Origin: Thermodesulfobacteriota bacterium
GTDB lineage: Bacteria > Desulfobacterota_D > UBA1144 > Nemesobacterales > Nemesobacteraceae
Direction: 5' to 3'
DNA length: 64,000 bases
NCBI GenBank assembly: GCA_965197885.1
Contig: OZ240231.1
Location: 1,166,369 to 1,230,368, forward strand
Shown: positions 7,648 to 49,814 of the stretch, in pieces
Position numbering within the stretch: the stretch's first letter is position 1
Layout of the letters: every line of letters begins with the position of its first letter
The notes under the pieces: model-generated
What the model saw: the letters and a program-made list of their open reading frames with translations, nothing else
The model's database searches: none
Told to the model about the DNA's origin: nothing
Translations under genes and position numbers: made by a program

Positions 7648-8505
7648 CTACCAGAACTTGCTGTAAAGAGTCTCGGCGTTATTCCAGAAGATATTCTCTT
7701 TTAATTCCTCGGAAATGTCCGCGCCCTCTATTTTCCAGTATTCAGAAGCGAAATCGCTCCACGGAATATCCGACCCGAACAGGAAACGGTCGGCTCCTAT
7801 GCCTCTTTCCTCGATCTCCTTGAGTATCCACGAGGACCCGAAGCCCACGGCCCATGAGGAATCGGTGTATACCTGATATCCGTCCTCAATCAGTTCGAAA
7901 AAGCGGGGGACGAACTTGATATGACCACTGACTCCGCCTCCCATGTGAACAACATGAATCTTGTTGCGCTTCCCGTACTCTTTTATCAGGGCAAGCGCGT
8001 TATCGATATCGGAACCTCCCCCGGGACTCGTATGAATATGAAGGGGCATATCGTGCTCGGCTCCGGCGTCAAGAATCATGTTCCAAAGTTCCGCGGACTC
8101 TTCGTCCCATTGCCCTGGGTCAAAAGTGCCGCCCAGAAGACACGTGGTTTTAAGGGCTATCAATCCTTTCTCACCGATGAGCTTAAGCGCTTCCTGGGTC
8201 CGTTCCTTGTCCTTTGGCAGGGCGGAAACCCATATCGCGCCCAGCAGCCGGTCATGAGACGTTTCCGCGCTTTCCGCCACAAGCGGGTTAAGTTCAAAGG
8301 GCTGGGCGGAATCGGGATACCCGTAATTTGACATCACAAGCGCCCTGTCAACCTTGTGCTTGTCCATCCCCTTTATATATTCCTCCGCGGTCTGGTAATC
8401 GGTTGTAGGCTTGACCGCTTCGGGCAAACCGTAATAGGCAAATCCCGGCACGGGACCGATATGACTGTGGTTATCAAATAACCGCTTTCTCCTGGTTATA
8501 TTCAT
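7648..8505 (-). CDS. amidohydrolase-family metal-dependent hydrolase (TIM barrel)
   Basis: An N-terminal HxH metal motif (DNHSHIG) is present, followed by later His (LHIHTS, HVVHMGG) and Asp (GSDIPW) ligand patterns typical of amidohydrolase_2. Confidence 0.8.
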   Translation of the reverse strand: MNITRRKRLFDNHSHIGPVPGFAYYGLPEAVKPTTDYQTAEEYIKGMDKHKVDRALVMSNYGYPDSAQPFELNPLVAESAETSHDRLLGAIWVSALPKDKERTQEALKLIGEKGLIALKTTCLLGGTFDPGQWDEESAELWNMILDAGAEHDMPLHIHTSPGGGSDIDNALALIKEYGKRNKIHVVHMGGGVSGHIKFVPRFFELIEDGYQVYTDSSWAVGFGSSWILKEIEERGIGADRFLFGSDIPWSDFASEYWKIEGADISEELKENIFWNNAETLYSKFW

Positions 8506-8589: not shown

Positions 8590-8958
8590 TCAATGCGCCT
8601 GCATCTTTTCACCGACGCGCGCACGAAGGGATTTCTCGATGGAATCAGGTTTTTCCCCTTTTTCAAGCCTGTGGGCCACTTCACTGAAATCATCTCCGTA
8701 ATCCCGCCCGGAGCGGCGGCTTTCTTTTCTCATCGTTTTAGCCAGCGATTTGCTGTCGTTTTCAGGAACTTTCGCTGAATCTGTCTTCTTGGGTTCTGTG
8801 CGGGTTCTGATTAAGGAAGTCGAGGAGAGGACGCGCTTAAGGTCGCTTTGCCCGCATTCAGGACAGACCGCCTGCTCGTTTTCGGCTTCAGAAATAGTCA
8901 GAAAAAGTATCGAGACGATCTTTTTACAATCCCGACAATCGTATTCATAGATAGGCAT
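8590..8958 (-). CDS. FmdB-family zinc-ribbon protein
   Basis: The N-terminus reads MPIYEYDCRDCKK...CPECG. This is the CxxC-CxxC signature of the FmdB regulatory zinc-ribbon family. Confidence 0.8.
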   Translation of the reverse strand: MPIYEYDCRDCKKIVSILFLTISEAENEQAVCPECGQSDLKRVLSSTSLIRTRTEPKKTDSAKVPENDSKSLAKTMRKESRRSGRDYGDDFSEVAHRLEKGEKPDSIEKSLRARVGEKMQAH

Positions 8959-9081
8959 TCAAATATCCCTATAATGACCAAGTATAAAGGAAACGCGACA
9001 TTTCAGTCAAGCTAATCTTTAGCGGTTCCAAGGAACCGTCACGGCCGCTTTTTCCTTTTGCCGCAAGTCTCTTAAAAGCGG

Positions 9082-9110
9082 TTGACCTTGTCCACTAAAA
9101 TTGATAATGT
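9082..9110 (+). promoter_or_regulatory. sigma-70 promoter candidate (extended -10) upstream of the cluster
   Basis: TTGACC (9082-9087) and a 17-nt spacer are followed by TG-A-TAATGT (9102-9110). The element lies about 37 nt upstream of ATG 9147. Confidence 0.3.
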
Positions 9111-9146
9111 ATTAAATATAGTGGATATGATACCAGATTAAACCTT

Positions 9147-9605
9147 ATGGCGAAATTTGAGTTTAAAATCATTACAAGTGAAAAAGATCTCGAAACTTAT
9201 TACAAACTTCGTGAAGATATTTTCGTAAGGGAGCAGAAGATATTCTCCGGAACCGATATTGACGAATATGACAGGGCCGCGATACACATAGCGGCCATCG
9301 AAAAAACAGGCGCGAAAATGGTCGGGGGCGTGAGGTGCTACAACCTCGAGGGAAACACCTGGGTAGGAGGCCGTCTGAGCGCAGCGCCCGGTTACCGAAA
9401 CGGCACAGTCGGTCGCCATCTCGTCAAATTCGCGGTAGAAACCGTAAAAACAAGGGGATGTGAGCGGTTCATCGCGTACGTTCAGCCGCAGAACGTGAGG
9501 TTTTTTGAAAGACTCAACTGGAAACGCTCGGGGGAGCCGATCATCTACCAGGGAAGCCCCCATCAGTTGATGGAAGCCGAGCTCGGAGCAGGGGGGAAGG
9601 CGTGA
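9147..9605 (+). CDS. GNAT N-acetyltransferase, MSMEG_0567/Sll0786-type (nitrogen-starvation cluster)
   Basis: The 152-aa protein shows the pattern FVREQKIF..D.DEYD...GGVR...W.GGRL...FIAYVQPQNV.FFERLNW...G.PH..M. This matches my recollection of that GNAT family. Its stop overlaps the AIR-synthase-like gene start (GTGA). Confidence 0.7.
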   Translation: MAKFEFKIITSEKDLETYYKLREDIFVREQKIFSGTDIDEYDRAAIHIAAIEKTGAKMVGGVRCYNLEGNTWVGGRLSAAPGYRNGTVGRHLVKFAVETVKTRGCERFIAYVQPQNVRFFERLNWKRSGEPIIYQGSPHQLMEAELGAGGKA

Positions 9606-10609
9606 GTCGCAAAGTCACGGCAGGATTCATGAAAGAACTGGCCAAGTCCCTGCGCGGTTCTGCGAGACTCAGTGAAAAAACCAACATAAGGGACATCTGG
9701 AATTTCTTCCCCCAGTTCGCAAAGGTTGAAGGAAAACAGGTGCGCCTCGGCGATGACGCGGCGGCTATTGAACATGAAAGAGGCTACTTGCTAGCCGCGG
9801 CAGAAGGGGTATATCAGCCCCTTTTGAAATCAAACCCCTATCTTGCCGGAAAAACCTCGGTCTTAACGAACGTAAACGACATCTATTCAATGGGCGGAAG
9901 GCCTCTGGCGATTCTGGATGTGCTTTGCTCCGCAGACGCTGGCAAAACGGACGAGATACTCTCGGGCATATACGATAACGCCGAAAGATACAACGTCCCG
10001 GTAATCGGAGGCCACCTAAGCGGCGAAGCGAGCGAGTTGACCCTCGCCGTATTCATCCTAGGCAAAGCCAGGAAGCTTCTTTCGAGTTTTAATGCCAGAG
10101 AGGGCGATGACCTGGTTATGGTGGTCGGCGGCGAAGGCAGATTTTATTCCGGCTTTAATTTCTGGGATTCCTCAAGCGGCTTAACCAAAACGGATGCGCT
10201 CCGGCATCTAGAGATCCTGCCCGAACTGGCGGAAGAAGAACTTGCCGACGCAGCCAAGGACATCAGCATGGCTGGCACTATCGGTTCTGTTCTGATGCTC
10301 CTTGAGTGTTCACAAAAAGGCGCTGAGATTCACATTGACGACATTCCGGTGCCACGGGGCGTCGGGTTGACCGAGTGGCTAGTTACTTTTCCGAGTTACG
10401 GTTTCGTTCTTTCCCTGAGGACGGAGAGAACTTCGGCAGTCCGCAGGAAATGCAGGGATCACGGCCTTTTATGCGAGAAAATCGGAGAGATTCGCGTGGA
10501 GCGGAAAGTCTATTTCAAGAACAAAGACAATCACAAGGAGCTTTTCTGGGATCTTGGGCGGGGATATTACATGGAACCCCCCGAATCGAAGGAGGCGGCC
10601 AATGAATGA
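9602..10609 (+). CDS. AIR synthase-related (PurM/ThiL-fold) protein, sll0787-type
   Basis: A GDDAAAI motif is followed by TNVNDIYSMGG and GGHL, hallmarks of the PurM-like ATP-grasping superfamily. Length is 335 aa. It lies immediately downstream of the GNAT, as in Nit1C clusters. Confidence 0.75.
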   Translation: MSRKVTAGFMKELAKSLRGSARLSEKTNIRDIWNFFPQFAKVEGKQVRLGDDAAAIEHERGYLLAAAEGVYQPLLKSNPYLAGKTSVLTNVNDIYSMGGRPLAILDVLCSADAGKTDEILSGIYDNAERYNVPVIGGHLSGEASELTLAVFILGKARKLLSSFNAREGDDLVMVVGGEGRFYSGFNFWDSSSGLTKTDALRHLEILPELAEEELADAAKDISMAGTIGSVLMLLECSQKGAEIHIDDIPVPRGVGLTEWLVTFPSYGFVLSLRTERTSAVRRKCRDHGLLCEKIGEIRVERKVYFKNKDNHKELFWDLGRGYYMEPPESKEAANE

Positions 10610-11189
10610 GCAGAACAAGGAGATTGAACGTATAGTCGCGAGAGTTGGAGAAAAGATAAAAACTATCCGGATGGAAAAAGGGTGGTCCCTTAAAAACCTC
10701 TCGGACAGATCGGGTATATCCGCGGCCGCCATCCACAAGATTGAATCAAACGGAATTACTCCAACCATAACCACCATGATGAAAATTTCCGACGCGCTCG
10801 GGAAAAAAGTAAGCAATTTCGTCGAAGAGGAACCGGGAGACAAAGATGTTTGCCTGATAAATTCAAACGAGCGCAAACCCGTATTCACTTTTAAAAAAGG
10901 TCTGGACCTGCAGGGAATATCCGCCAAGCAGTACGGAGAGTTCATCATGACCGCCGCGTACGCCACGGTGGAAGTGGGCGCCTCAAGCGGCAAAAAAAGC
11001 ATGAGTCACCGAGGGGAAGAACTGGTTTACTGTCTGCAGGGAAAAATGAGATTCGAAGTAAACAAGAAAACTTATGATCTGCGGGCCGGAGACAGTATGC
11101 ATTTCAGAACCCATCTGGACCACAAATGGAAAAATATCGGAAAAGTTCCCGCGAAATTGCTATGGGTGCTTTCTATCGAGGCTTCCTAA
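10602..11189 (+). CDS. XRE-family HTH transcriptional regulator with C-terminal cupin domain
   Basis: ATG 10602 follows an AAGGAGG RBS. The N-terminal HTH_3 region reads IRMEKGWSLKNLSDRSGISAAAIHKIESN. The C-terminal cupin carries the GDSMHF...HKW pattern. It overlaps the upstream stop by 8 nt. Confidence 0.85.
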   Translation: MNEQNKEIERIVARVGEKIKTIRMEKGWSLKNLSDRSGISAAAIHKIESNGITPTITTMMKISDALGKKVSNFVEEEPGDKDVCLINSNERKPVFTFKKGLDLQGISAKQYGEFIMTAAYATVEVGASSGKKSMSHRGEELVYCLQGKMRFEVNKKTYDLRAGDSMHFRTHLDHKWKNIGKVPAKLLWVLSIEAS

Positions 11190-11200
11190 GGAGTTGTTCC

Positions 11201-12490
11201 GTGAGCGCTGAGAGAAAAACAAAAGAACCTGATTTGCCAGAGCGCATTGACGCCGCAAACGCCTACGCGCTTGAGATGCTGCTTTCCGTTGAGCCTGCCC
11301 TCGCGGGAGTGGAAAGGGCCCTTGACGTCGTTCCCGGAATGACTTCCACAACCGTTTTGCACGCGGGTCCGCCGATCGGCTGGCGCAGGATGTGCGATCC
11401 GATGAAAAGAGCCGTGCGGGGTGCGCTTATATTCGAGGGGCTGGCAAAGGACTCTTCGGAAGCTGAAAAAATAATACTGAAAGACAAAATAACCCTTTCC
11501 CCGAATCACCACCATGGCTGCGTCGGACCTATGACGGGGATAATCTCCGCTTCAATGCCGGTGGTCGTCACGAAGGACCTGAGGACCGGAAAAAAAGCTT
11601 ATTCCACGTTTAACGAAGGCGGCGGGCAGGTGCTTTGGTTCGGATCGTTCGGAGAGGAGACACTACAGCGCCTCAGGTGGATAAGAGACAAATTCGCCCC
11701 CGTTATGAAAAAAGTATTTGCAAGCGCCGAGGCAATTTCAGTGTGGAACATACTGTCTCAGGGAATACAGATGGGAGACGAATGCCATAACCGCCACGGT
11801 GCTTGCACCAACATTTTTCTGAAAAATATCGCCGAGCCTCTTTTCTCTCTGGGCATCCCGCGCGCAAACGCCATGTCCGCTTACAGGTTCATGTCCGCAA
11901 ACAGCCACTTTTTTCTTAACTTTACCATGACCGCATGCAAGCTTGCCACAGATGCCGCCCACGATGTCGCCGGCAGCACATTGGTTACCGCCATGTCAAG
12001 AAACGGAACCGACTTCGGCATAAGGGTAAGCGGGCTCGGAAACAGGTGGTTCGTGGTGAAGTCACCCTATCTCCAAGACGCTCTTTACAACCTCGGTTAC
12101 GGACCGAAAGACGCCGCCCCAGACATAGGCGACAGCTCCATCATCGAAACAATGGGGCTTGGGGGGTTCGCAATGGCCGCCGCCCCTTCCATGGCGTCAT
12201 TTGCCGGAGGAGGGTTCAGCGACGCAGTGGATATTACAAGCAGTATGAATCTCATTACGACGGTGAAAAATCCCAAGTTCGCGATACCTTCCCTGGATTT
12301 TCAGGGAACGCCGACCGGGATTGACATAAGAAAGGTGGTCGACACGGCGATACTGCCAAGCATAAACAGCGCGATTGTGCATAAAAGCTCGGGAGCGGGG
12401 CAGATAGGAGCCGGAATAGCCAAAGCGCCTTACGGGTGCTTCGAAAAAGCGCTTCGGGCGTTTGGAAAACGACATGATTTAGCGGCATAG
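11201..12490 (+). CDS. DUF1116 protein (E. coli YlbE/AllG-like)
   Basis: GTG 11201 follows a TAAGGAG RBS. The motifs LHAGPPIGW..M..PMK.A..GA.IFEG.A and HH..VGPMTGI.SASMP match my recollection of YlbE. Confidence 0.7.
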   Translation: MSAERKTKEPDLPERIDAANAYALEMLLSVEPALAGVERALDVVPGMTSTTVLHAGPPIGWRRMCDPMKRAVRGALIFEGLAKDSSEAEKIILKDKITLSPNHHHGCVGPMTGIISASMPVVVTKDLRTGKKAYSTFNEGGGQVLWFGSFGEETLQRLRWIRDKFAPVMKKVFASAEAISVWNILSQGIQMGDECHNRHGACTNIFLKNIAEPLFSLGIPRANAMSAYRFMSANSHFFLNFTMTACKLATDAAHDVAGSTLVTAMSRNGTDFGIRVSGLGNRWFVVKSPYLQDALYNLGYGPKDAAPDIGDSSIIETMGLGGFAMAAAPSMASFAGGGFSDAVDITSSMNLITTVKNPKFAIPSLDFQGTPTGIDIRKVVDTAILPSINSAIVHKSSGAGQIGAGIAKAPYGCFEKALRAFGKRHDLAA

Positions 12491-12512
12491 GTTATAAAGC
12501 GAGAGGTACGTA

Positions 12513-14075
12513 TTGGTAACGCTCAATACCGTAAAACAGAACCATTACCAGGATTCGATGAAGCTTATGCAGATAAGCAGAGAGCTTGCTAATTCTCCCG
12601 GTATCAAAAAGGCTTCGGCCATAATGGCCACTGAAGCGAATTTAAAAACGCTTCGGGACGCGGGATTAATAAAAACCGCGTCGCGCTCACTCGGCGCGAA
12701 CGATCTTATAATAGCGGTTGAGGCAGAATCGGAGACGGCAGGCCACGACGCCTTGGGAAAAATCGATTCCTTTCTGACCGCGCCGCCAGATGGAGTTGGC
12801 CATACAGCCGGATACCGAAGCTTTGAAGAGGCCCTAAGAGCCCCGGGCAACCCGAACATCGCCGTTATCTCCGTTCCGGGGGAGTTTGCGAAACTTGAAG
12901 TCGCAAGAGCCATAAAAAACAACATTCACACCTTTCTTTTCAGCGACAACCTGAGTGTCGGCGAAGAGGTTGAACTAAAGCGAAGAGCCGCGCGCAAGGG
13001 ATTACTTATGATGGGGCCGGGATGCGGTACTGCGATAATAAACGGCGCGGGCTTTGGGTTTGCCAACATCGTAAGACGGGGACCGGTAGGGATTGTCGCC
13101 GCCGCAGGTACGGGCATGCAGGAAGTAGCAAGCCTGATTCATAACTGGGGAGTCGGCGTTTCTCACGGAATCGGGGTCGGCGGAAGGGATCTTTCCGAGA
13201 AAGTGGGCGGGCTGATGGCAATCAAGGCCATGGAACTGCTCGAGAAAGATGAAAACACGGAGATCATTCTGCTGGTCTCAAAGCCGGCTCCGATAAAGGT
13301 AATAGAAAAAATAATCGAAACGGTGCGGCGAGGAAAAAAACCTTTCGCGATGTGCCTGCTCGGGGAAAACGGAATTGAAGCGGAGAAAAACGTGTTTTCT
13401 ACCGATACGCTCGAAGAGTTGTCTTTGCTTGCAGTAAATCTCGCGGGCGGGCAAGGAGGCAAGCGGATCAGAGTTTCCGATGCCGGCCTGAAAAGATACG
13501 GAAGGAATTTCGTCAACTCGCTTCGCCCTTCGCAGAAATACGTAAGGGGGTTGTTTTCAGGTGGCACCCTGTGTTACGAGGCCCAGAAAATACTCACCTT
13601 GTCTCTCGGAAAGATTTATTCAAACGCACCTTTGTCAAAAGACTGCCTGCTTGGCGATTCACGCAAAAGCCGCGGGCACTGCTGCGTAGATCTCGGCGAA
13701 GAAGAGTTTACCGTCGGACGCCCCCATCCGATGATCGACTCCACGCTTAGAAGCGAAAGGATAATCGAGGAAGCAAAAGATCCCCAGACAGCGGTAATTC
13801 TCCTCGATATCGTACTGGGCTACGGCTCAAACGCCGACCCCGCCGGGGAACTTCTCCCGGCCATTGGGCAAGCAAGACAAATAGCTAAAAACAAAAACAG
13901 ATCGCTCGCCTTCATCGCGCACGTGTGCGGTACGGATGACGATCCTCAGAATCTTGACTTGCAGGAGAAAAAGTTAAGGAGAAACGGCATAAAAATTGCA
14001 ACAACTAACGCTCAGGGAGCCAGGGCCGCGGCCTTGATCGCGCGGCTTGCGTCAGAGAGGAGAGCAAGGCGATGA
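12513..14075 (+). CDS. fdrA: FdrA-family protein (succinyl-CoA-synthetase-alpha-like; E. coli FdrA/AllF-like)
   Basis: The start is TTG behind GAGAGG. The N-terminal YQDSMKLMQIS...MATEAN domain is followed by CoA-ligase-like Rossmann segments (ISVPGEFA, MGPGCGTA, AAAGTGMQE). Length is 520 aa. Confidence 0.8.
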   Translation: MVTLNTVKQNHYQDSMKLMQISRELANSPGIKKASAIMATEANLKTLRDAGLIKTASRSLGANDLIIAVEAESETAGHDALGKIDSFLTAPPDGVGHTAGYRSFEEALRAPGNPNIAVISVPGEFAKLEVARAIKNNIHTFLFSDNLSVGEEVELKRRAARKGLLMMGPGCGTAIINGAGFGFANIVRRGPVGIVAAAGTGMQEVASLIHNWGVGVSHGIGVGGRDLSEKVGGLMAIKAMELLEKDENTEIILLVSKPAPIKVIEKIIETVRRGKKPFAMCLLGENGIEAEKNVFSTDTLEELSLLAVNLAGGQGGKRIRVSDAGLKRYGRNFVNSLRPSQKYVRGLFSGGTLCYEAQKILTLSLGKIYSNAPLSKDCLLGDSRKSRGHCCVDLGEEEFTVGRPHPMIDSTLRSERIIEEAKDPQTAVILLDIVLGYGSNADPAGELLPAIGQARQIAKNKNRSLAFIAHVCGTDDDPQNLDLQEKKLRRNGIKIATTNAQGARAAALIARLASERRARR

Positions 14076-15019
14076 AACTGGCCGTCGTTGCTTTCGGAGG
14101 TAACGCGTTTTCAGGTGATAAGAATCATGGAACACACCGAGATCAATTCGCTTTCGCGGAAGATATATCAGGGGAATTGGTGAAACTTGTGGAATCGGGT
14201 TACGGAATCGTCATAACTCACGGAAACGGACCCCAGGTGGGAAACCTTCTGCTCCAGCAGGAATATGCTTCTTGCGCGGCCCCACCCATGCCCGCCGACG
14301 TATGCGGCGCGATGACACAAGGCCAGATCGGATACTTAATCGTTCAAACGCTGAGAAATCACCTCAGAAAAAACAATGTAGATAAACCCGTTGCGGCCAT
14401 CATTACCCAAGTAGTGGTAGACGAAAATGACGAAGCTTTTTCAAACCCGACGAAATTCATAGGACCGTTTTTTGACAAGAAAACCGCCGACTCTCTTAAG
14501 AGAGAGAAAGACTGGAAGATAGAAGAAGACTCTGACAGGGGATATAGAAGGGTCGTGCCTTCGCCAAAGCCGGTGGACATAGTGGAGAAAAAAGAGATCG
14601 CAGACATGATAGGAAGAGGTTTTATCGTCGTTGCGTGCGGAGGGGGCGGAGTGCCGGTTGTCCGCGGGAAAACCGGTGAACTCAGGGGAGTAAGCGGCGT
14701 GATCGACAAAGATCTGGTTTCAGAAAAACTTGCGACTCTCATTGGGGCCGAGACCCTTGCCATAATTACGCCCGTGGACAAGATATCGCTGTTTTTCGGA
14801 ACTAAACGGCAGGTGGACTTAGAGAAAATAACTACAGACGAAGCGGAAAAATACCTTGAGGAAGGACATTTTCCGCCCGGAAGCATGGGTCCCAAGATAG
14901 AAGCGGCGATAAGGTTCTTACGAAAAGGCGGCAAACGCGTGGTGATAACGTCGGCGAAATCGACAACTAAAGCTCTTGAGGGGAAAAAAGGTACTGAAAT
15001 AGTTAATGGGATGAATTAA
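14072..15019 (+). CDS. arcC: carbamate kinase
   Basis: The motifs VVAFGGNAF, ITHGNGPQVGNLLLQ and ACGGGGVPV are present. Length is 315 aa. The ATGA overlap with fdrA suggests translational coupling. Confidence 0.9.
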   Translation: MKLAVVAFGGNAFSGDKNHGTHRDQFAFAEDISGELVKLVESGYGIVITHGNGPQVGNLLLQQEYASCAAPPMPADVCGAMTQGQIGYLIVQTLRNHLRKNNVDKPVAAIITQVVVDENDEAFSNPTKFIGPFFDKKTADSLKREKDWKIEEDSDRGYRRVVPSPKPVDIVEKKEIADMIGRGFIVVACGGGGVPVVRGKTGELRGVSGVIDKDLVSEKLATLIGAETLAIITPVDKISLFFGTKRQVDLEKITTDEAEKYLEEGHFPPGSMGPKIEAAIRFLRKGGKRVVITSAKSTTKALEGKKGTEIVNGMN

Positions 15020-15133: not shown

Positions 15134-15625
15134 ATGGCAGTAGACAGAATAAAAAGCGAGAGGCCCCAGGAGGGGAAAGCTCTTGTGGATTACGAAGAAA
15201 AGCTTTTTCCTGACCATATGGCAAAGGAAGGAGAAAAAGCTTTGTTTCTCATACATTCGGTTCCGTATGAAGGTTCTGTAGCAGGTATAAACATGCTTAC
15301 CGCTATCAGGGCGAAAAAGAAAGGATATGGAGTGACGGTTCTTTTCTACGGACCCGCTTCCGGCATACCGGTATACAGAGGCTGGCCGAATGTGGGAGAT
15401 GACGGTTACGGCGCTGGTATTCAGCTCTATCCGAATCTTGTCAAGAGGCTGCTTTCGGAAGGAATAACGGTATACGCGTGCCGTTTTTCCGCTGCCGCGC
15501 TTCTCGGACAGAATGAATCGAGCTTTATCGAGGGAGTTGTCCCGATTCATCCGACGGACATACTGGACATAGTTATCGAGCATCACAGGGAAGGCGCCAT
15601 GATGTTCAGCACGTGGACTGTTTAA
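15134..15625 (+). CDS. MSMEG_0572/Sll0783-type nitrogen-starvation protein (DsrE-like fold)
   Basis: The 163-aa protein has a DsrE-like alternation (ALFLIHSVPY...GYGVTVLFYGPASG...GITVYACRFSA). Its size and its position next to the radical SAM gene match Nit1C 'Hyp1'. Confidence 0.6.
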   Translation: MAVDRIKSERPQEGKALVDYEEKLFPDHMAKEGEKALFLIHSVPYEGSVAGINMLTAIRAKKKGYGVTVLFYGPASGIPVYRGWPNVGDDGYGAGIQLYPNLVKRLLSEGITVYACRFSAAALLGQNESSFIEGVVPIHPTDILDIVIEHHREGAMMFSTWTV

Positions 15626-15753: not shown

Positions 15754-16884
15754 ATGGATTCCAGAACCCTTAAGGTAGAGTTGCAAAGTTACGGTTTGAG
15801 AATTCCTGATTCCAAAAATATCAGGCGAGGGGGCGCCGGTCCCACGGGAGGAATTCATCTGAGGATTCTTCCCGATACCGACGCGAATGTACCGGTTGTT
15901 GGCGATTTCGTAGAATCTTCGCCGTATCATCTTGACAAGATAAACGGCGAAGACTGGATTTTCCGAGATGAAGTGGCTTTAGTACAGGTCGAGCTTATGG
16001 GTAATGGAAGGTTTTACGACCACAAAACCTCAAGCGGAATACCGATGCAGAGAATCGGACTTCTGCACTGCCCGACCACTTTTGCCACGACTCTGCTTCA
16101 GACCTGTGATTTCTGGAAGGACGAGAGAAGGTGTCAGTTCTGCGGAATAGAACTTACTCTCAAGGACAGAAGTACCGTCGGATTCAAAAACGCAAAAGCG
16201 CTTGTTGAAACAATTCAACTCGCAAAGGAACTCGACGGCATTTCCAACATTGTCTTTACTTCCGGCGTTGCACCTGACGAGGAAAAAGCGCTTGAAAAAT
16301 ACGCCGAGATATGTTCCGAGGTTAAAAATCATACAGGGCTTCCGATTCAGCTGCAGATTGTTCCCCCCGAAGACCTGGGCTGGCTGGAGAGGCTGAAATC
16401 TTCGGGGGTGGACGCTCTCGGAGTCCATATTGAAACATTCGACCCGGAGGTATTCGAAAAAATAACCCCGGGCAAGGCTATGATAGGACTTGACAGGTAC
16501 ATAGAGACTTGGAAAGAGGGCGTAAGGGTTTTCGGTAGGTGGGCGGTAAGCACCTATATTCTGGTCGGGCTCGGCGAAAGGCTGGAAACGGTTATCGAGG
16601 GCGCGGAGATTTGCGCAGAGATAGGGGTTTATCCCTTCATCGTGCCTTTCAGGCCTATCGCAGGCACCCCGATGGAAAACGTAATGCCGCCGAGGGCCGA
16701 AGTTATGGAATACGTGTATTCCGAAGCCGCCAAGATTCTGTCCAGATACGACGGAGGGTCCAAAAGCGGCGTGGCCGGCTGCGTAAGTTGCGGGGAATGT
16801 TCCGTGCTTCCCGATTTTGAGAGGCTGCACGAGTCAAAAACAGTAGAGTTTAAAAAATTCATAAAGTCGGTCCCGGTAAATTGA
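15754..16884 (+). CDS. radical SAM protein, MSMEG_0568-type
   Basis: A Cys cluster C118-x8-C127-x2-C130 (TCDFWKDERRCQFCG) is followed by a TIM-barrel-like core. A C-terminal CVSCGEC motif is also present. Length is 376 aa, and the context is the Nit1C-type cluster. Confidence 0.7.
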   Translation: MDSRTLKVELQSYGLRIPDSKNIRRGGAGPTGGIHLRILPDTDANVPVVGDFVESSPYHLDKINGEDWIFRDEVALVQVELMGNGRFYDHKTSSGIPMQRIGLLHCPTTFATTLLQTCDFWKDERRCQFCGIELTLKDRSTVGFKNAKALVETIQLAKELDGISNIVFTSGVAPDEEKALEKYAEICSEVKNHTGLPIQLQIVPPEDLGWLERLKSSGVDALGVHIETFDPEVFEKITPGKAMIGLDRYIETWKEGVRVFGRWAVSTYILVGLGERLETVIEGAEICAEIGVYPFIVPFRPIAGTPMENVMPPRAEVMEYVYSEAAKILSRYDGGSKSGVAGCVSCGECSVLPDFERLHESKTVEFKKFIKSVPVN

Positions 16885-16949: not shown

Positions 16950-18299
16950 ATGAGTCAAGAGAAACTGAAGTTTATCATAATAGGCGGAGGTGCTGGCGGC
17001 ATTTCCGCGGCTTCCACCGCAAGGGGTCTCGCCGATCCCGATTCATCCGTTACGCTCTTCACCGAGTTTGAAGATGTCGCCTACAGTCCCTGCGGCATCC
17101 CCTTTGTCCACGGCAGGGAGATACCGGATTTCAAAAACCTTTTTCTTCAAACCGCCGAGCACTACACCGGTATCGGAATCGATATCAGATACAACTCCAA
17201 AGTAACGGGAATAGATCTTGATAAAAAGGTCGTGGCTGTGGGCTCCGAGGAGTTTCCGTGGGATCGGCTCATAATCGCAACCGGATTCGAATACGGAAAT
17301 CCGGACATTCCCGGCATCGATCTTGACGGCATTCATTACGTGAAGAACATCCGAAGGGCCATGGAATTTGACAAGGAGCTTGACCGGATAAAGAAGATCG
17401 CCGTGCTATCCGCCTCTCCTCTGGGTGTCGAGATGGCGGGCAACTTGGCGCAAAGAGGAATCGAGACCCATCTTGTGGACGAAGGCGGCTGGCTTATGTC
17501 CGAGGTCGCAGACCCGGATATCATGGAGCCGGTACAGGATTCCTTCGAAGAACTGGGCGTTAACATGCATTTCGGAACCAAGGCCCATGAGATAAAAGGG
17601 CAGGACGGCAAGGTAAAATCCCTGATTACCTCGAAGGGTGAAATAGAGTGTGAAGTCGTTATAGTCGCCACTCACAAGGTGCCGAACAATACTCTTTCCC
17701 GGGAAGCCGGAATAAAACTCGGCTCTACCGGCGGGGTCCTGGTTGATGACCACATGAGAACCAGTGTCCCCGGCGTCTACGCCGCCGGCGACTGCGCGGA
17801 AGTGGTGCACGGGGTCACGGAAATCCCCATTCAGGGACTCTCGGGAAGCCATGCGTACTCCCAGGGAAGAACAGCCGGGGCGAATGCGGCGGGCGATGAC
17901 CGCGCGTACGATCCCGTGTACGTGCCGTGGGGCATGGTTGGCGGAAAAATCCAGATCGGCGGAGTGTCTCTCGGCGAAACCCTTCACAAGGCTCTAGGCA
18001 TACCTCACGTCGTCGCGTTCTCGCAGGGAATATCCAGAGCCAGGTATTACCCCGGAGTCACGAGAATGAGGGTAAAACTCATTGCCGACCCAGAGACTCA
18101 CAGAGTGTTGGGCGCCCAGATGGCCGGCGGGGAAGGGATAAAGGAAAGAGCCGATTTTCTCGCTTTTTCAATCAAGCGCAAGGCTACGCTTGAAGATTTC
18201 GCGTGGATGGAAAACGTGTATTCACCCCCGATAGGCGCCCTGATGGAACCCATCGCCCTAGCGGCGCAGGCGGGGTTGGCCAAATTGGCCGGCAGGTAG
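16950..18299 (+). CDS. FAD-dependent pyridine nucleotide-disulfide oxidoreductase (NADH oxidase/CoA-disulfide reductase-like; MSMEG_0569 position)
   Basis: The dinucleotide motif IIGGGAGG is followed by a single redox Cys in YSPCGIPF. A second Rossmann (AVLSASPLGVEMAG) and GDCAE are also present. Length is 449 aa. Confidence 0.8.
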   Translation: MSQEKLKFIIIGGGAGGISAASTARGLADPDSSVTLFTEFEDVAYSPCGIPFVHGREIPDFKNLFLQTAEHYTGIGIDIRYNSKVTGIDLDKKVVAVGSEEFPWDRLIIATGFEYGNPDIPGIDLDGIHYVKNIRRAMEFDKELDRIKKIAVLSASPLGVEMAGNLAQRGIETHLVDEGGWLMSEVADPDIMEPVQDSFEELGVNMHFGTKAHEIKGQDGKVKSLITSKGEIECEVVIVATHKVPNNTLSREAGIKLGSTGGVLVDDHMRTSVPGVYAAGDCAEVVHGVTEIPIQGLSGSHAYSQGRTAGANAAGDDRAYDPVYVPWGMVGGKIQIGGVSLGETLHKALGIPHVVAFSQGISRARYYPGVTRMRVKLIADPETHRVLGAQMAGGEGIKERADFLAFSIKRKATLEDFAWMENVYSPPIGALMEPIALAAQAGLAKLAGR

Positions 18300-18321: not shown

Positions 18322-18582
18322 TTGTCAGAAAATAAACCCCCGGGCGGCTGGTTAAGAAAAAACGCGGAAAAATACCTGCTTGAGGCCGCGGCGGATGATA
18401 TGGCGAATCGTTACCGGGACTGTACTTCCAACGCTTACCGCGAAAAAGGAGTGCTGCCTTTTTTCTGGAGAAACATATTCGTCCCCGTTTACCTTGCCAT
18501 CCCCTGGAAAATTCGCAGAAGAATAATCCTTATGAGTTCTTACCCGGGGGGTGATCGTCCCAAGTGGAAAAAATTCGATTAA
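18322..18582 (+). CDS. small MSMEG_0570-type nitrogen-starvation cluster protein
   Basis: This 86-aa ORF starts 22 nt after the flavoprotein gene. It has a hydrophobic segment (FFWRNIFVPVYLAIPW). Size and position match Nit1C 'Hyp2', and the assignment rests on context. Confidence 0.5.
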   Translation: MSENKPPGGWLRKNAEKYLLEAAADDMANRYRDCTSNAYREKGVLPFFWRNIFVPVYLAIPWKIRRRIILMSSYPGGDRPKWKKFD

Positions 18583-18616: not shown

Positions 18617-19615
18617 ATGTCGAAAGTAAGCGCCAGAGAGCAGTTGAACGTAAAAACGATCGGAGTTAACGCCTACGAGACTCTCGTAAACCTCAAAAGC
18701 CCCGCGAACATCGAGGGTGTGTTCGAAAATTCCTTCTACGTAAAGGTCGGCGAGTATGAGCTGATCAGGGTTACCCGACACGAACAATACGTTTCAGCAA
18801 GTTCGATAATCGTAGAGGAAAAAGACCGGGATTCGGGCTTCAAATCCATGGGAATCGAACAAGGCATGAGGGTTCTCTGCGGGAAAAAAGATATCTTAAT
18901 AGGAAAAAGATTCGCAGTTGCCAATATCCACGGCGTCGCAAAATGGCAACCGCCGCGCGTCCCGGACAGCGCGTCCATACGCCCGCTTGAGATAATAAAG
19001 CTTAATCTTAGGGTGCTCCGGGACGTGATATACACCTGTCCCAGCAGGGAAGGACTCGTACCGCTGCTTGAAAACGTGGAACTTGTCGGCTCCATTGATC
19101 TTTTCCTAAAACCCCGCACCGACAGCTTTGCCGAGAGAGCAAGACCCGGCATCGAAAGAGTGATGTGGGGGATTTTCTCACTTGATAAGGCCGCGGTCAT
19201 GGAAAGTGCGAGGACAATAATAGGTCTCGGACCGGGACTCACGCCGTCATGCGACGATTTTCTCTGCGGGCTTGTAGTCAGTCTTAAGACCGGAGCGGCA
19301 GTGTTAAGCATGAGTGACGACACTGGGTTTTTCGATGAAATCGCCGGAGCTATTTACGAGGAAGCGCGCCAAAGAACCACGGTTTTCGGCTCAAACATGC
19401 TGAGGGAAGCCCGCGAGGGAGTGTGCCCTCTCGCGGTAGTCAATCTCATCCATTGCCTTCTTACCGAAGATGTGGCGGAGACAGTTGAGGTTTCGAAAAC
19501 GCTGATCAGAATGGGCGAGACCTCCGGGGCGGACATCGCTATCGGGGTATTTTACGGAATCAGGTTTCTGGTCTCGAGGCTTGAGAACCTGGAGGTTTTG
19601 CATGAAACGGCTTAA
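18617..19615 (+). CDS. DUF2877 protein (E. coli YlbF/AllH-like)
   Basis: The GLGPGLTPSCDDFLCG motif is characteristic of DUF2877. I chose ATG 18617 (MSKVSAREQ...). A longer start at 18551 is also possible. Confidence 0.6.
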   Translation: MSKVSAREQLNVKTIGVNAYETLVNLKSPANIEGVFENSFYVKVGEYELIRVTRHEQYVSASSIIVEEKDRDSGFKSMGIEQGMRVLCGKKDILIGKRFAVANIHGVAKWQPPRVPDSASIRPLEIIKLNLRVLRDVIYTCPSREGLVPLLENVELVGSIDLFLKPRTDSFAERARPGIERVMWGIFSLDKAAVMESARTIIGLGPGLTPSCDDFLCGLVVSLKTGAAVLSMSDDTGFFDEIAGAIYEEARQRTTVFGSNMLREAREGVCPLAVVNLIHCLLTEDVAETVEVSKTLIRMGETSGADIAIGVFYGIRFLVSRLENLEVLHETA

Positions 19616-20798
19616 CATAGCGCTTTTCACCTATTCCACAAAACCCAGAGGAGGAGTGGTGCACACGCTTAACCTGGCGGAAAAACTGGAAGAACTTGGC
19701 CAGAAGGTTCATGTTTACGCGCTCGGGACGGAAGGCGGATTTTTCAGAGAAGTTGACGTTCCACACACTCTGGTGCCGTGTCCGAAAAACGAATTCGCCG
19801 GTATGGACGAAAAAATCCACGCCTATATAAAAGCATATGTCGATTACCTGAGCGGCCTTGACGAAACCTACGACATCTATCACGCCGAGGACTGCATATC
19901 AGCAAACGCGCTTTTGGATATAAGGCAAAGAGGTCACATAGAATTTTTTCTGAGAACCGTTCATCACGTTGACGATTTCGTATCGGAATCTCTCGTGGAA
20001 TGTCAGATGAAAAGCATAACGAGACCCGACCACCTGCTGGTCGTAAGCAATTACTGGGAAAAGGAACTCGCCGACAAATACTCCCTCAGACCGCTGCGGG
20101 TAAGAAACGGCGTTGACCTATCCAAGTTTCACGGCACGGCCACCCGAAGCAAAACCCCCGAGGCCTCGAAGCTTGAATTTTCAGCCGGCGGATGCAAGAC
20201 GGTTCTCACGATCGGCGGTATTGAACCCCGGAAAAACACGATATCAACCCTAAGGGCGTTTGCCCGGGTAAAAGCGCGCTTCGCGGTAAAGGACAAGCGG
20301 GTAATCTGGCTGCTTGGAGGCGGGGAAACGCTTTTTGACTACAGGGATTACCGCAAGGAGTTTTTCTTCGAGATGGAAAAACTGGGAATAGAAGAGGGAA
20401 AAGATATTTTCATTCTGGGAAGGGTTCCCGAAGAACTGATTGCCGATCTTTATAACGCTGCTGACGTTTTCGTTTTTCCCTCGTTAAAAGAGGGCTGGGG
20501 ACTCGTGGTGCTCGAAGCCATGGCTTCCGGAGTGCCGGTTATAGCATCCGACATAGAGCCGCTTACTGAATTTATGGAAGACGGGAAAAACTCCCTGCTT
20601 GTCTCCCCTCTGGATTGCGGGGCTCTCGCGGAGGGAATTATCAGAATACTGGAAGACGGGGCGCTGCGTGAAAAACTCAAAACCGGCGGCACGGACACCG
20701 CGGGACAATACGGATGGGACCGTGTGGCGCTTGAACATTTGAACATATACAGGGATATACTGAATACGGGTGTTTCGCACGTAGCGGAAAAGAGGTGA
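19602..20798 (+). CDS. GT4-family glycosyltransferase, MSMEG_0565-type
   Basis: ATG 19602 follows GGAGG. The N-terminus reads FTYSTKPRGGVVHTL, and the C-terminal GT-B E-x7-E region reads FPSLKEGWGLVVLEAMASGVPV. It overlaps the DUF2877 stop by 14 nt. Confidence 0.8.
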   Translation: MKRLNIALFTYSTKPRGGVVHTLNLAEKLEELGQKVHVYALGTEGGFFREVDVPHTLVPCPKNEFAGMDEKIHAYIKAYVDYLSGLDETYDIYHAEDCISANALLDIRQRGHIEFFLRTVHHVDDFVSESLVECQMKSITRPDHLLVVSNYWEKELADKYSLRPLRVRNGVDLSKFHGTATRSKTPEASKLEFSAGGCKTVLTIGGIEPRKNTISTLRAFARVKARFAVKDKRVIWLLGGGETLFDYRDYRKEFFFEMEKLGIEEGKDIFILGRVPEELIADLYNAADVFVFPSLKEGWGLVVLEAMASGVPVIASDIEPLTEFMEDGKNSLLVSPLDCGALAEGIIRILEDGALREKLKTGGTDTAGQYGWDRVALEHLNIYRDILNTGVSHVAEKR

Positions 20799-20803
20799 AA
20801 ACA

Positions 20804-21196
20804 ATGAAAGTCGAGGCAACCTGGAAAAAAAACTATCAGGTGACCGTAAACGCAAGGCAGTTCGATATACCGGTTGACGAGGCGCCCGAATTCAGCGGGG
20901 ACGATACGGGGATGATGCCCACGGAGCTTTTTTTGTGTTCCCTGGCTTCATGCTTCTGTCTTGCCATCGTCTACGCGGCGAGCAGAAGGAAAATCGCGCT
21001 AAAAGACCTAAAAGTTGACGTTACGGGCGAGAAGGATAGGAGAAAATTTTTGTTTTCCAAGTGTATCATCAATGTTAAAAGCTCCATTGCCCGAACCAGC
21101 CTTGAAGACCTTATGGATTCGGCGAAGCGCTACTGTTTCATTACAAACACGATCAAGGGAGGCTGTCCGATCGAATACAGCGTAAACCCGGAGTGA
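20804..21196 (+). CDS. OsmC/Ohr-family protein
   Basis: The two conserved Cys contexts are present (LCSLASCF and RYCFITN). The protein is about 130 aa. An alternative GTG at 20795 overlaps the GT stop. Confidence 0.75.
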   Translation: MKVEATWKKNYQVTVNARQFDIPVDEAPEFSGDDTGMMPTELFLCSLASCFCLAIVYAASRRKIALKDLKVDVTGEKDRRKFLFSKCIINVKSSIARTSLEDLMDSAKRYCFITNTIKGGCPIEYSVNPE

Positions 21197-21208
21197 CGGA
21201 GCATATAA

Positions 21209-21664
21209 TTGGTCGTTGAATTCAAAATCAGAAAAAACGTCTACTATGATTCCCTGCGTCTTATGCGTATTTCGAAAACCGCGAGCGGGGCCGCAGGGGT
21301 AAAAAACGCCTTTGCGGTGATGGCGACCGATAAGGCCAAGTACGCTCTTAATTCCGCCGGGCTCCTGGCGCACGAGATCAAAAAAGCCAAAGGAAGTGAT
21401 CTGGTCATCATCGTTGAAGCGGAATCAAAGGAGCTTGCCAAACAAACGATTAATAGAATAGAAACGCTGATTTCATCAGATGATTCGCAATCGGCTTCGG
21501 CAGCGCCGAACATCCTCAATGAACAGTTACGGGTTGTTAACGTGGGCCTTGAGATATTCGGCGAGTCCTTGGCAGTCCAGGGAGTTGAGGTAAGGCACGT
21601 GGAATGGAAAGTTCCGGCGAAGGGAAACATGAAACTTGTAAATCTGTTAAAGAAAATGATGTAA
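21209..21664 (+). CDS. stand-alone FdrA N-terminal-domain paralogue
   Basis: The start is TTG behind GGAG. Residues 1-90 align by eye with FdrA 12513 (YYDSLRLMRIS / YQDSMKLMQIS; AFAVMATD / ASAIMATE; DLVIIVEAES / DLIIAVEAES). Confidence 0.7.
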   Translation: MVVEFKIRKNVYYDSLRLMRISKTASGAAGVKNAFAVMATDKAKYALNSAGLLAHEIKKAKGSDLVIIVEAESKELAKQTINRIETLISSDDSQSASAAPNILNEQLRVVNVGLEIFGESLAVQGVEVRHVEWKVPAKGNMKLVNLLKKMM

Positions 21665-21690
21665 TTTTCCCCGCGTGGAGGAGAAATTCA

Positions 21691-25473: not shown

Positions 25474-25489
25474 CGCAATCCGTCATGTC

Positions 25490-27826: not shown

Positions 27827-27843
27827 CGCCTGACCCGGATCAG

Positions 27844-49753: not shown

Positions 49754-49814
49754 TTAGCGCCCGTACCAAAGAACTTCTCTCTGGGAACAACAGCATTAAG
49801 GAGGATAATTGATC

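Follow-up and report, generated by a model that had tools for sequence, protein, structure and literature searches.

The 64,000-nucleotide window analyzed here (Thermodesulfobacteriota bacterium, GenBank assembly GCA_965197885.1, contig OZ240231.1, positions 1,166,369 to 1,230,368) contains an operon in which core genes of the nitrogen-metabolism cluster Nit1C stand together with genes for a predicted three-subunit carbamoyltransferase of the AllFGH type and a carbamate kinase (CK). Nit1C has been known since 2005 and is found widely among cyanobacteria, marine Synechococcus and Prochlorococcus included, as well as proteobacteria and actinomycetes (PMC1199592, PMC7815647, PMC6039565, PMC10119275). 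Its canonical form is nitBCDEFGH (Podar 2005, PMC1199592), also seen as sll0783-0787 in Synechocystis, in the cyanide assimilation of Pseudomonas and as the gpr cluster of M. smegmatis, MSMEG_0565-0572. The canonical cluster responds to nitrogen starvation, by which it is strongly induced, and to cyanide; its nitrilase liberates ammonia, while the function of the other genes is unknown (PMC1199592, PMC7815647, PMC6039565, PMC10119275). It is needed for assimilation of cyanide nitrogen (PMC6039565, PMC7815647, PMC10119275).

The window operon shares NitB, NitD, NitE, NitF and the MSMEG_0565 glycosyltransferase with canonical Nit1C, each above an NCBIfam cut-off built for that cluster, but it lacks the Nit6803-family nitrilase, NitG/ORF6 and the FMO-like NitH. 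With three of the seven defining genes missing, it does not count as Nit1C in the strict sense; it is clearly Nit1C's sister cluster. A literature search returned no paper linking Nit1C or sll0783 with FdrA, allFGH or carbamate kinase, and the papers on DUF1116 or DUF2877 found there do not concern Nit1C. This conserved, nitrilase-less sister version is apparently undescribed.

The carbamoyltransferase and carbamate kinase genes

In E. coli, fdrA-ylbE-ylbF-ybcF are the genes allFGH-allK, which encode oxamic transcarbamylase (OXTCase) and a catabolic carbamate kinase (PMC11326118, PMC9843812). AllFGH catalyzes the reaction oxalurate + Pi <-> oxamate + carbamoyl phosphate, in an assay that needed Mg2+ and no CoA (PMC11326118), and AllK turns carbamoyl phosphate and ADP into ATP, NH3 and CO2 (PMC11326118, PMC9843812). 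All four protein families are present and co-operonic in the window (Table 1).

The AllG gene starts at a GTG codon with AGGAG 7 nucleotides (nt) upstream and encodes 429 amino acids (aa). Because close homologues are 427-431 aa long, we place its start at 11201 rather than take the longer open reading frame (ORF) from 11126. The protein matches the Pfam family AllG/PF06545 at 263.5 bits (cut-off 27), E. coli YlbE at 42% identity over 413 aa (E 5e-116) and the solved structure PDB 3CLQ (E 6e-106). Many alignment columns are invariant among the AllG types, including G-D-S and G-Q-x-G-A-G. AllF, a 520-aa protein with a TTG start, contains the Pfam domains CoA_binding and Ligase_CoA. It scores 454.6 bits against the NCBIfam FdrA model NF004760 (cut-off 433), is 36% identical to E. 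coli FdrA over 515 aa (E 1e-93), with a conserved GRPHPMID stretch, and matches PDB 3DMY (E 3e-75). The alignment stops at FdrA residue 497, leaving the window AllF without the C-terminal tail of FdrA.

The kinase, 315 aa long, exceeds the cut-off of the NCBIfam arcC model TIGR00746 (377 bits against 358.25) and is 36% identical to E. coli YbcF. Against NF006926 (PRK09411), the AllK equivalog specific to YbcF, it falls short, at 222.2 bits with a cut-off of 416. An ATGA at 14072-14075 overlaps the allF stop with the kinase start. Of 17 distinct related loci, about 6 share this 4-nt overlap; in the others the gaps run from -1 to 23 nt, with two larger. In every lineage described below, allF and the kinase gene are adjacent. 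The original prediction had reported YlbE-like, FdrA-like and carbamate kinase genes here, with the ATGA overlap. An ORF listing and profile searches bear out its positions and family assignments for all three, which lie on the + strand, and the overlap is present in the sequence.

Where that account fell short was in treating the module as three genes, since AllH and a small AllF-derived protein, mini-AllF, are encoded further down the same operon. Four other cluster genes separate AllH from allG and allF, and seven separate mini-AllF from them. The AllH protein, read from 18551 or 18617, scores 76.8 bits against Pfam PF11392 (cut-off 25), and from 18617 it is 29% identical to the C-terminal half of E. 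coli YlbF (E 8e-12). A motif, G-x-G-P-G-L-T-P-S-x-D-D, is invariant across 35 homologues. The AlphaFold2 (AF2) model of AllH, a confident one (pLDDT 88.8, pTM 0.89), has an N-terminal beta domain and an all-helical C-terminal domain. When this model was compared with the PDB by Foldseek, no hit reached significance (best E 0.33, TM about 0.2), and hence the fold gives no functional clue; a sequence search of the PDB with AllH and with the Sll0783 protein of the operon likewise gave nothing significant.

The 151-aa mini-AllF joins the two ends of FdrA and omits the catalytic core between them. Its residues 7-98 align with FdrA 6-99, the HMA_AllF_N domain, and its residues 100-150 with FdrA 505-554; Pfam records HMA_AllF_N in its relatives. 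The tail carries the motif V-x-N-V/I-G-L ... V-x-W-x-P-x-A-G-G, and the protein that bears it differs between loci. In E. coli it is AllF. In the sampled actinomycete and P-type clusters (defined below) and in many AllFGH loci outside Nit1C, the motif stands at, or is fused to, the N-terminus of AllG, and in the window it is on the separate mini-AllF. Because it appears on AllF, on AllG or by itself, this pattern of fusion and fission indicates that the tail motif links the AllF and AllG subunits. Mini-AllF would then presumably belong to the AllFGH complex.

AllF, AllG, AllH, carbamate kinase and mini-AllF together are a complete predicted set for carbamoyl transfer and carbamate kinase activity in one operon: the three subunits and co-operonic kinase by which allFGHK is compositionally defined are all there. 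The set differs from that of E. coli in several ways. The gene order is allG-allF-CK ... allH in the window and allF-G-H-K in E. coli, and AllF lacks the tail, which a separate protein supplies. AllH has 332 aa compared to 271 aa, and BLAST aligns it over the C-terminal domain only. The kinase fits the generic ArcC model and not the YbcF equivalog, AllG belongs to another clade, and allantoin genes are not nearby.

Relationship to nitrilase-type Nit1C clusters

We searched for the missing Nit1C genes with hidden Markov models (HMMs). The nitrilase model, built from 56 cluster nitrilases and run with --max over the 64-kb window, gave a best match of E 0.024, which is spurious; tblastn found nothing, and the model had no significant match in any AllFGH-type locus. 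NitG/ORF6 (about 100 aa, MSMEG_0570 family; 47 sequences in the model) is absent from the window and from every AllFGH-type cluster, the sole matches, with E above 2, being at two orphan Sll0783 loci, L018 and L021. The model of the FMO-like flavoprotein NitH (MSMEG_0569 family, 48 sequences) found only weak, Rossmann-level matches to an oxidoreductase of the Nox/CoA-disulfide-reductase (CoADR) type, with a best E of 2e-6 and E 0.62 in the window. We rejected this oxidoreductase as a diverged NitH: it fills the flavoprotein slot, and its NitH matches are marginal. An 86-aa protein encoded next to it, in the position equivalent to that of NitG, was rejected as a diverged NitG (hhalign probability 7%). 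The exchange is wider than the nitrilase, with NitG/ORF6 and NitH absent and the Nox/CoADR flavoprotein and the 86-aa protein present. Whereas canonical clusters have the nitrilase, NitG and NitH, AllFGH-type clusters always have AllF, AllG, AllH and carbamate kinase and usually OsmC, an Amidohydro_2 protein, the Nox/CoADR reductase and the 86-aa protein.

The distribution of the two versions was surveyed in two scans. One, with a six-sequence Sll0783 alignment, covered one genome per species and yielded 573 relatives, the best 80 of them entering the analysis; the other searched metagenomes with an AllG alignment and added its best 80 loci. Both samples lean toward relatives of the query. A gene was scored as present or absent by tblastn or local HMMs over 10 kb on either side, and taxon names are those written in the records of metagenome-assembled genomes (MAGs). 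We distinguish a colinear Dadabacteria type (D-type), an Actinomycetota type (A-type) and a P-type, the lineage of locus L068.

Among the Sll0783-anchored clusters, 73 retain at least two core genes. Fifty-six of these have the nitrilase and none of AllG, AllF and carbamate kinase; they come from Proteobacteria, Cyanobacteria, Acidobacteriota, Bacteroidota and other groups. Fourteen lack the nitrilase and have AllG, AllF or carbamate kinase, three have neither, and no cluster has both. Two of the three (L013 and L015) are D-type clusters truncated by the contig end, and the third (L054) is a full-length A-type cluster with no AllF, AllG or carbamate kinase in the scored interval.

The window is closest to Candidatus Dadabacteria CAR2_bin_20 (Sll0783 95% identical; among the best 80 loci). 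Its AllG falls with more than 120 database clusters at 67% identity or above, of which the named ones are MAGs of Thermodesulfobacteriota and Candidatus Dadabacteria. At loci whose AllG is 75%, 69% or 67% identical, gene order is unchanged from Amidohydro_2 to Methyltransf_20, and the genes outside this block differ. A-type carriers include Pseudonocardia hydrocarbonoxydans NBRC 14498 (L016; NZ_BJNG01000001.1, about 31.9-52.5 kb), P. alaniniphila, several Pseudonocardiaceae MAGs and one Nocardioidaceae MAG. L068, a Pseudomonadota MAG, is also in the nitrilase-less group. In both the A-type and L068, the gene set occurs in a different order and on both strands. Such recurrence in changed order and orientation is a classic sign that genes are linked by function and not by inherited synteny. 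The adjacency is thus no peculiarity of one genome: it is found in at least three deep lineages, both colinear and shuffled.

Eleven metagenomic loci (L087-L097) belong to the same P-type lineage as L068. Beside a divergent sigma-54/GAF activator, reminiscent of NitA in canonical Nit1C, they carry Sll0783, Amidohydro_2, radical SAM, GNAT and OsmC genes, followed in the layout by tail-bearing AllG, carbamate kinase and AllF. The layout continues with a GlcD-like FAD oxidase, a GlcF-like Fe-S/CCG protein, AllH, the AIR-synthase-like (AIRS-like) protein, an unknown protein and an NMT1-type ABC transporter. The GT4 glycosyltransferase, the Nox-type flavoprotein and the 86-aa protein are absent. 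Common to D-, A- and P-types are only Sll0783, radical SAM, GNAT and AIRS-like proteins together with AllF, AllG, AllH and carbamate kinase. Amidohydro_2 and OsmC were rejected as universal members, as they are missing near several actinomycete or P-type clusters.

The GlcD-like FAD-linked oxidase and GlcF-like Fe-S/CCG genes lie between AllF and AllH in L087 (13940-16577) and also in L090 and L095. By analogy, a 2-hydroxy-acid oxidase beside an OXTCase-like enzyme recalls the E. coli ureidoglycolate dehydrogenase that feeds OXTCase, and it may hint at the class of substrate.

Neighbor-joining trees with Kimura distances and 30-50 bootstraps, which are rough and distance-based, separate the two versions. 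Sll0783 of the AllFGH-type loci, together with two orphan copies from Pseudonocardia, splits from the nitrilase-type proteins in 50/50 and 30/30 replicates. The same split is found for GNAT (35/40 and 29/30), for the AIRS-like protein (32/40 and 26/30) and for GT4 (31/40). For the radical SAM protein it was present in 40/40 replicates of the first data set and no longer appeared once the data included divergent metagenomic sequences such as L161 and L162. AllG of the D-, A- and P-types and of the hybrid described below stands apart from 51 other AllG sequences and E. coli YlbE in 29/30 replicates. The shared proteins are 33-50% identical to their nitrilase-type counterparts. The orphan Sll0783 genes (L018, Pseudonocardia sp., and L021, P. 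sulfidoxydans; positions 10001-10486), which have no other cluster genes within the scored interval, group with the actinomycete AllFGH-type clade.

One locus carries both modules. L161 (metagenome contig VFQN01000316.1, 2-15265) encodes a Nit6803-like nitrilase (59% identical), NitG/ORF6, AIRS-like, GNAT and radical SAM proteins and a MocR-type regulator, with AllF, carbamate kinase, tail-bearing AllG and an AllH-like gene in the middle. It also holds ComA (phosphosulfolactate synthase), DUF7714, two Lyase_1 proteins and a PALP enzyme. It is the sole such locus found among the best 80 of each scan, and because of it strict mutual exclusivity of nitrilase and AllFGH was rejected. Its GNAT and AIRS-like proteins group with the nitrilase type and its AllG with the actinomycete type. 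The simplest reading of these trees is that the whole cluster has two old lineages, one with nitrilase, NitG and NitH and the other with AllFGH and carbamate kinase, with occasional recombination between them.

These comparisons modify two claims of the original prediction. It had described a module embedded between Nit1C genes, and the three genes do lie between the AIRS-like gene plus regulator and the Sll0783-like gene, with each flanking Nit1C gene above its NCBIfam cut-off; the context is that of Nit1C, but the trees suggest a separate ancient lineage of the whole cluster and not Nit1C with an insert. It had also suggested that the chemistry of the module substitutes for, or feeds, the nitrilase step. 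The strong anticorrelation (AllF, AllG or carbamate kinase in 0/56 nitrilase-type clusters; of all 73 clusters, 14 have these genes and no nitrilase, and none has both) agrees with the module taking the place of the nitrilase, but NitG and NitH are exchanged as well, and the hybrid has both modules.

Proposed function and its alternatives

The reading we prefer, and to which we would give an even chance, is catabolic: the shared core would make an N-carbamoyl intermediate from which AllFGH and carbamate kinase would release ammonia and ATP. In this model, the Sll0783, radical SAM, GNAT and AIRS-like proteins would act on a nitrogen-containing substrate to give an intermediate that carries an N-carbamoyl (acyl-urea or ureido) group. 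Phosphorolysis by AllFGH would yield carbamoyl phosphate and an amide or amine, and carbamate kinase would convert carbamoyl phosphate and ADP to ATP, NH3 and CO2. Where present, the Amidohydro_2 protein may hydrolyze the leftover amide. The net outcome would be ammonia release with a gain of ATP, the terminal C-N-cleaving role that the nitrilase holds hydrolytically in canonical Nit1C. What the sequence comparisons show is the identity of the genes, their membership of one operon, their conservation, the anticorrelation with the nitrilase and the separate lineages in the trees; the substrate class, the direction of the reaction and the role of the amidohydrolase are the parts of this scheme that we infer.

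Several observations favor the catabolic direction. The module is anticorrelated with an ammonia-releasing nitrilase, the P-type has an NMT1-type ABC uptake system and a divergent sigma-54/GAF activator, and the D-type has a PuuR-like repressor and a conserved operator-like palindrome. The role of bacterial carbamate kinases is usually catabolic. The same logic operates in the arginine deiminase pathway (ArcB/ArcC) and in the agmatine and putrescine carbamoyltransferase routes, in which phosphorolysis of a ureido group gives carbamoyl phosphate and carbamate kinase gives ATP, NH3 and CO2. Those pathways rely on an enzyme of the ATCase/OTCase fold, whereas the AllFGH type found here is unrelated and has three subunits (PMC11326118). 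The catabolic direction is further favored because E. coli AllFGH and AllK run that way (PMC11326118, PMC9843812) and because canonical Nit1C is induced by nitrogen starvation and needed for assimilation of cyanide nitrogen.

Other findings weigh against this model. The OXTCase reaction can go both ways and was assayed as carbamoylation (PMC11326118), so the direction of the reaction can be read only from context. The glycosyltransferase, methyltransferase, aminotransferase and pyridoxal phosphate (PLP) enzymes in or beside the D-type operon look biosynthetic, and A-type clusters, too, carry genes of this kind. L161, which holds nitrilase, NitG and AllFGH with carbamate kinase, speaks against a simple one-for-one replacement of the nitrilase. 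Most Amidohydro_2 relatives whose function is known are decarboxylases and not amidases, and several actinomycete clusters have no such gene nearby. AllF and carbamate kinase formed a single Nit1C-associated clade in 0/30 bootstraps. The sampling counts here too, as it comprises the best 80 loci per scan and tblastn within 10 kb on either side.

The opposite, biosynthetic direction is unlikely, though by no means negligible. Carbamate kinase would make carbamoyl phosphate from ATP, NH3 and CO2. The radical SAM, GNAT, AIRS-like, GT4 and methyltransferase proteins would build a small molecule, and AllFGH would carbamoylate one of its amide or amine nitrogens, giving a ureido or acyl-urea metabolite such as a stress or redox protectant. 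In vitro, OXTCase does convert oxamate and carbamoyl phosphate to oxalurate, with a Km for carbamoyl phosphate of 1.3 mM (PMC11326118). The M. smegmatis Nit1C cluster (gpr) gives peroxide resistance (PMC6039565), and a database description of Nit1C speaks of a possible biosynthetic function (reported in PMC7815647). Tailoring-type enzymes are present in the cluster (a GT4 related to MshA/BshA, Methyltransf_20 and GNAT), and OsmC and the CoADR/Nox-like reductase would suit a protective metabolite. However, GT4, the methyltransferase and the PLP enzymes are not universal and are absent from the P-type, which has an uptake transporter and a sigma-54 activator. The usual catabolic role of carbamate kinases also argues the other way, and biosynthesis leaves the anticorrelation with an ammonia-releasing nitrilase unexplained.

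The AIRS-like protein invites comparison with the cyano chemistry of HypF and HypE, which shares with this cluster, as an analogy, carbamoyl phosphate and an ATP-dependent enzyme of the PurM superfamily. Carbamoyl phosphate, coming from or going to carbamate kinase and AllFGH, might carbamoylate a thiol or amine, possibly the Cys of Sll0783, and the AIRS-like protein might dehydrate the carboxamide to a (thio)cyanate or nitrile with ATP; the two lineages would then make or break the same C-N group by different routes. HypE dehydrates an S-carbamoyl group derived from carbamoyl phosphate, and the AIRS-like protein falls in the PurM/HypE/SelD/ThiL superfamily. A near-invariant Cys in the Sll0783 family and a radical SAM protein in the BioB/HmdB/PylB/LipS2 neighborhood fit the idea, and genetic evidence ties canonical Nit1C to the metabolism of cyanide and nitriles (PMC7815647, PMC11049912). 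We nevertheless regard this as improbable. It is purely an argument by analogy, the best models for the AIRS-like protein are methanogenesis marker 2, ThiL and PurL and not HypE, of which it is no orthologue, and the window has no HypF homologue or HypF-like domain and no hydrogenase context. Less probable still is an acyl-CoA synthetase or CoA ligase role for the FdrA-like protein, as older annotation has it, in partnership with the CoADR-like flavoprotein and unrelated to carbamoyl transfer. AllF does have CoA_binding and Ligase_CoA domains and resembles the alpha subunit of succinyl-CoA synthetase, and the CoADR/Nox-type reductase gene is the fourth one downstream, beyond those for the kinase, Sll0783 and radical SAM proteins. 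Yet the assay of E. coli AllFGH showed carbamoyl transfer with no CoA present (PMC11326118), every lineage has carbamate kinase tightly coupled to allF, and the reductase is absent from P-type clusters.

It remains to consider whether an ordinary oxalurate cassette of the allantoin branch, allFGH-allK, has landed beside Nit1C-like genes and works independently of them. Such cassettes are common: about 60 of the 80 AllG-anchored metagenome loci have AllG, AllF, carbamate kinase and AllH and no Nit1C core genes, although many of these contigs are short, and a few of them adjoin allC, allD or allE homologues. Because so many lack the core and so few have those allantoin genes, we conclude that the AllFGH-CK cassette is widespread and used in several contexts. 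In the window, however, its genes are interleaved with core genes in one operon, the association survives rearrangement over three lineages, and the Nit1C-associated AllG is a distinct clade. A tblastn search with E. coli AllC, AllD and AllE found no match in the window or any Nit1C-type locus. This rearranged conservation, the AllG clade and the lack of allC, allD and allE led us to reject chance adjacency, and an independent allantoin cassette is the least credible of the explanations considered here. With none of these genes nearby and an AllG apart from E. coli YlbE, the substrate is probably not oxalurate from allantoin.

It is possible, and we put it forward only tentatively, that AllFGH with carbamate kinase is one terminal module and the Nit6803-type nitrilase its alternative, both C-N-cleaving and ammonia-releasing and acting on chemically related products of the same four-enzyme core. 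If so, the intermediates of the Nit1C pathway would be at the nitrile, carboxamide or acyl-urea level, their interconversion could fall to the HypE-like AIRS protein, and the AllFGH family would have a second physiological substrate, unrelated to allantoin. A sister lineage that keeps the core and swaps the nitrilase module is a natural experiment that constrains the chemistry of the shared intermediate, and offers a second, chemically informative version of the long-standing Nit1C problem. It would extend the AllFGH family, characterized only in 2024, beyond allantoin catabolism, and the mobile FdrA tail, split off or fused to AllG, gives fusion and fission evidence on the AllF-AllG link. The cultured carriers P. 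hydrocarbonoxydans NBRC 14498 and P. alaniniphila make the hypothesis testable.

Operon layout, control region and neighboring genes

The operon is a packed array on the + strand that extends from 9147 to at least 23098 (about 14 kb) and starts from a divergent intergenic region, 8959-9146 (Table 1). The closest solved relatives of the AIRS-like protein are PurL, SelD and ThiL. The start of the next gene, for the HTH-cupin regulator, overlaps the AIRS-like stop (ATGAATGA), and this regulator is conserved among D-type and A-type loci. One Cys is nearly invariant in the Sll0783 family. The Nox/CoADR-type oxidoreductase matches NADH oxidase and CoADR structures in the PDB with E about 1e-55 and is 54-60% identical to its counterparts in actinomycete loci; the gene for the 86-aa protein always follows it. 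The conserved protein after mini-AllF probably starts near 21691, judging by relatives of about 188 aa. The divergent Amidohydro_2 protein is 82-94% identical in most Dadabacteria-type loci and 53-58% identical in the actinomycete and P-type loci that carry it.

Table 1. Features of the operon and its divergent flank, in window coordinates.
Feature	Position	Strand	Basis and occurrence
Amidohydro_2 (PF04909) metal-dependent hydrolase/decarboxylase, divergent	7648-8505	-	Pfam; in D-type, P-type and some A-type loci
FmdB-family zinc-ribbon protein, divergent	8590-8958	-	Pfam Zn_ribbon_8; NCBIfam TIGR02605; D-type loci only
Imperfect palindrome, 35 bp, TCCACTAAAATTGATA-N3-TATTAAATATAGTGGA	9091-9125		Inverted repeat; comparative alignment
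MSMEG_0567/Sll0786-family GNAT N-acetyltransferase (NitE equivalent)	9147-9605	+	TIGR04045, 145 bits (cut-off 68.45)
sll0787-family AIR-synthase-like protein, PurM superfamily (NitF equivalent)	9602-10609	+	TIGR04049, 330.1 bits (cut-off 321.3)
HTH_3 + Cupin_2 regulator, PuuR-like	10602-11189	+	Pfam; NCBIfam PuuR match below cut-off
AllG/DUF1116 subunit homologue of AllFGH carbamoyltransferase	11201-12490	+	PF06545; YlbE alignment; PDB 3CLQ
AllF/FdrA subunit homologue (HMA-like N-domain, CoA_binding, Ligase_CoA)	12513-14075	+	NF004760; FdrA alignment; PDB 3DMY
Carbamate kinase, ArcC type	14072-15019	+	TIGR00746; YbcF alignment; ATGA overlap with allF
MSMEG_0572/Sll0783-family protein (NitB equivalent; DsrE/YchN-like per literature)	15134-15625	+	TIGR04044, 171 bits (cut-off 109.85)
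MSMEG_0568-family radical SAM protein (NitD equivalent)	15754-16884	+	TIGR04043, 334.2 bits (cut-off 303.7)
Nox/CoADR-type pyridine nucleotide-disulfide oxidoreductase, S-x-C-G-I-P motif	16950-18299	+	Pfam; PDB
Conserved 86-aa protein, W-L-R-x-N-x-E-x-Y-L ... P-W motif	18322-18582	+	No family; alignment of 25 sequences
AllH/DUF2877 subunit homologue, 332 aa	18617-19615	+	PF11392; YlbF alignment; local HMM; AF2 model
MSMEG_0565-family GT4 glycosyltransferase, start uncertain	19581-20798	+	TIGR04047, 392.9 bits (cut-off 259.9)
OsmC/Ohr-like peroxiredoxin	20795-21196	+	PF02566; NCBIfam; in most AllFGH-type loci
mini-AllF, 151 aa: HMA_AllF_N domain of FdrA fused to FdrA C-terminal tail motif	21209-21664	+	FdrA alignment; NF004760 in two stretches
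Conserved protein	21604-22275	+	No family match; D-type only, 54-62% identity among D-type loci
Methyltransf_20 SAM-dependent methyltransferase	22259-23098	+	PF12147, 182.9 bits; D-type only

The palindrome lies just downstream of a TTGAC(C/T) hexamer and about 20 nt upstream of the GNAT start. An alignment of 14 distinct D-type intergenic regions contains this strongly conserved block in all 14, with the consensus TTTACTAAAGTTGATA-N3-TgTCAAgTATAGTAAA, and the palindrome pattern itself is matched in 10 of them. It looks like a candidate promoter overlapped by an operator for a dimeric HTH protein, and the PuuR-like HTH-cupin protein of the operon would be the obvious candidate to bind it. A second conserved palindrome-like block, TTTCCTATAGTTTATATT...TTCTAGGAAA, is present at 8959-9000 beside the start of the zinc-ribbon gene. 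It occurs in most D-type loci, is degenerate in the window and may be a control site of the divergent FmdB/Amidohydro_2 pair. Promoter and terminator scans gave counts not above those of shuffled sequence, the sole informative region being the divergent intergenic one, from the comparative alignment, and an Rfam search of positions 5000-30000 (E up to 1) found no relevant RNA element in or near the operon.

Directly after the operon, at 23150-26746 (+), are genes for an aminotransferase, a CysK/CBS/SbnA-like PALP enzyme and a LysA/FslC-like PLP decarboxylase. At 60-65% identity, L009, L011 and L012 also have the aminotransferase and PALP genes after the cluster, and L008 has the aminotransferase. 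These PLP genes may be an extension of the D-type pathway or a separate amino-acid module. Downstream of them, at 26870-28998 (+), is a pair encoding a MoxR-type AAA+ ATPase and a VWA-domain protein.

The remainder of the window is ordinary chromosome, with guaA, guaB, gyrA, proB, glnA, an NtrC-type regulator and tRNAs. A 1002-aa protein encoded at 36120-39128 (+) combines six cadherin-like beta-sandwich repeats with a beta-propeller of the glucose/sorbosone-dehydrogenase type. Just downstream of glnA (49809-51266), in a GC-rich stretch (0.54-0.57), a group II intron occupies 51363-53071 (-); it comprises a reverse-transcriptase/maturase ORF with RVT_1 and GIIM domains (51363-52799) and the Rfam group-II D1-D4 RNA domains at 52786-52861 and 52902-53071.

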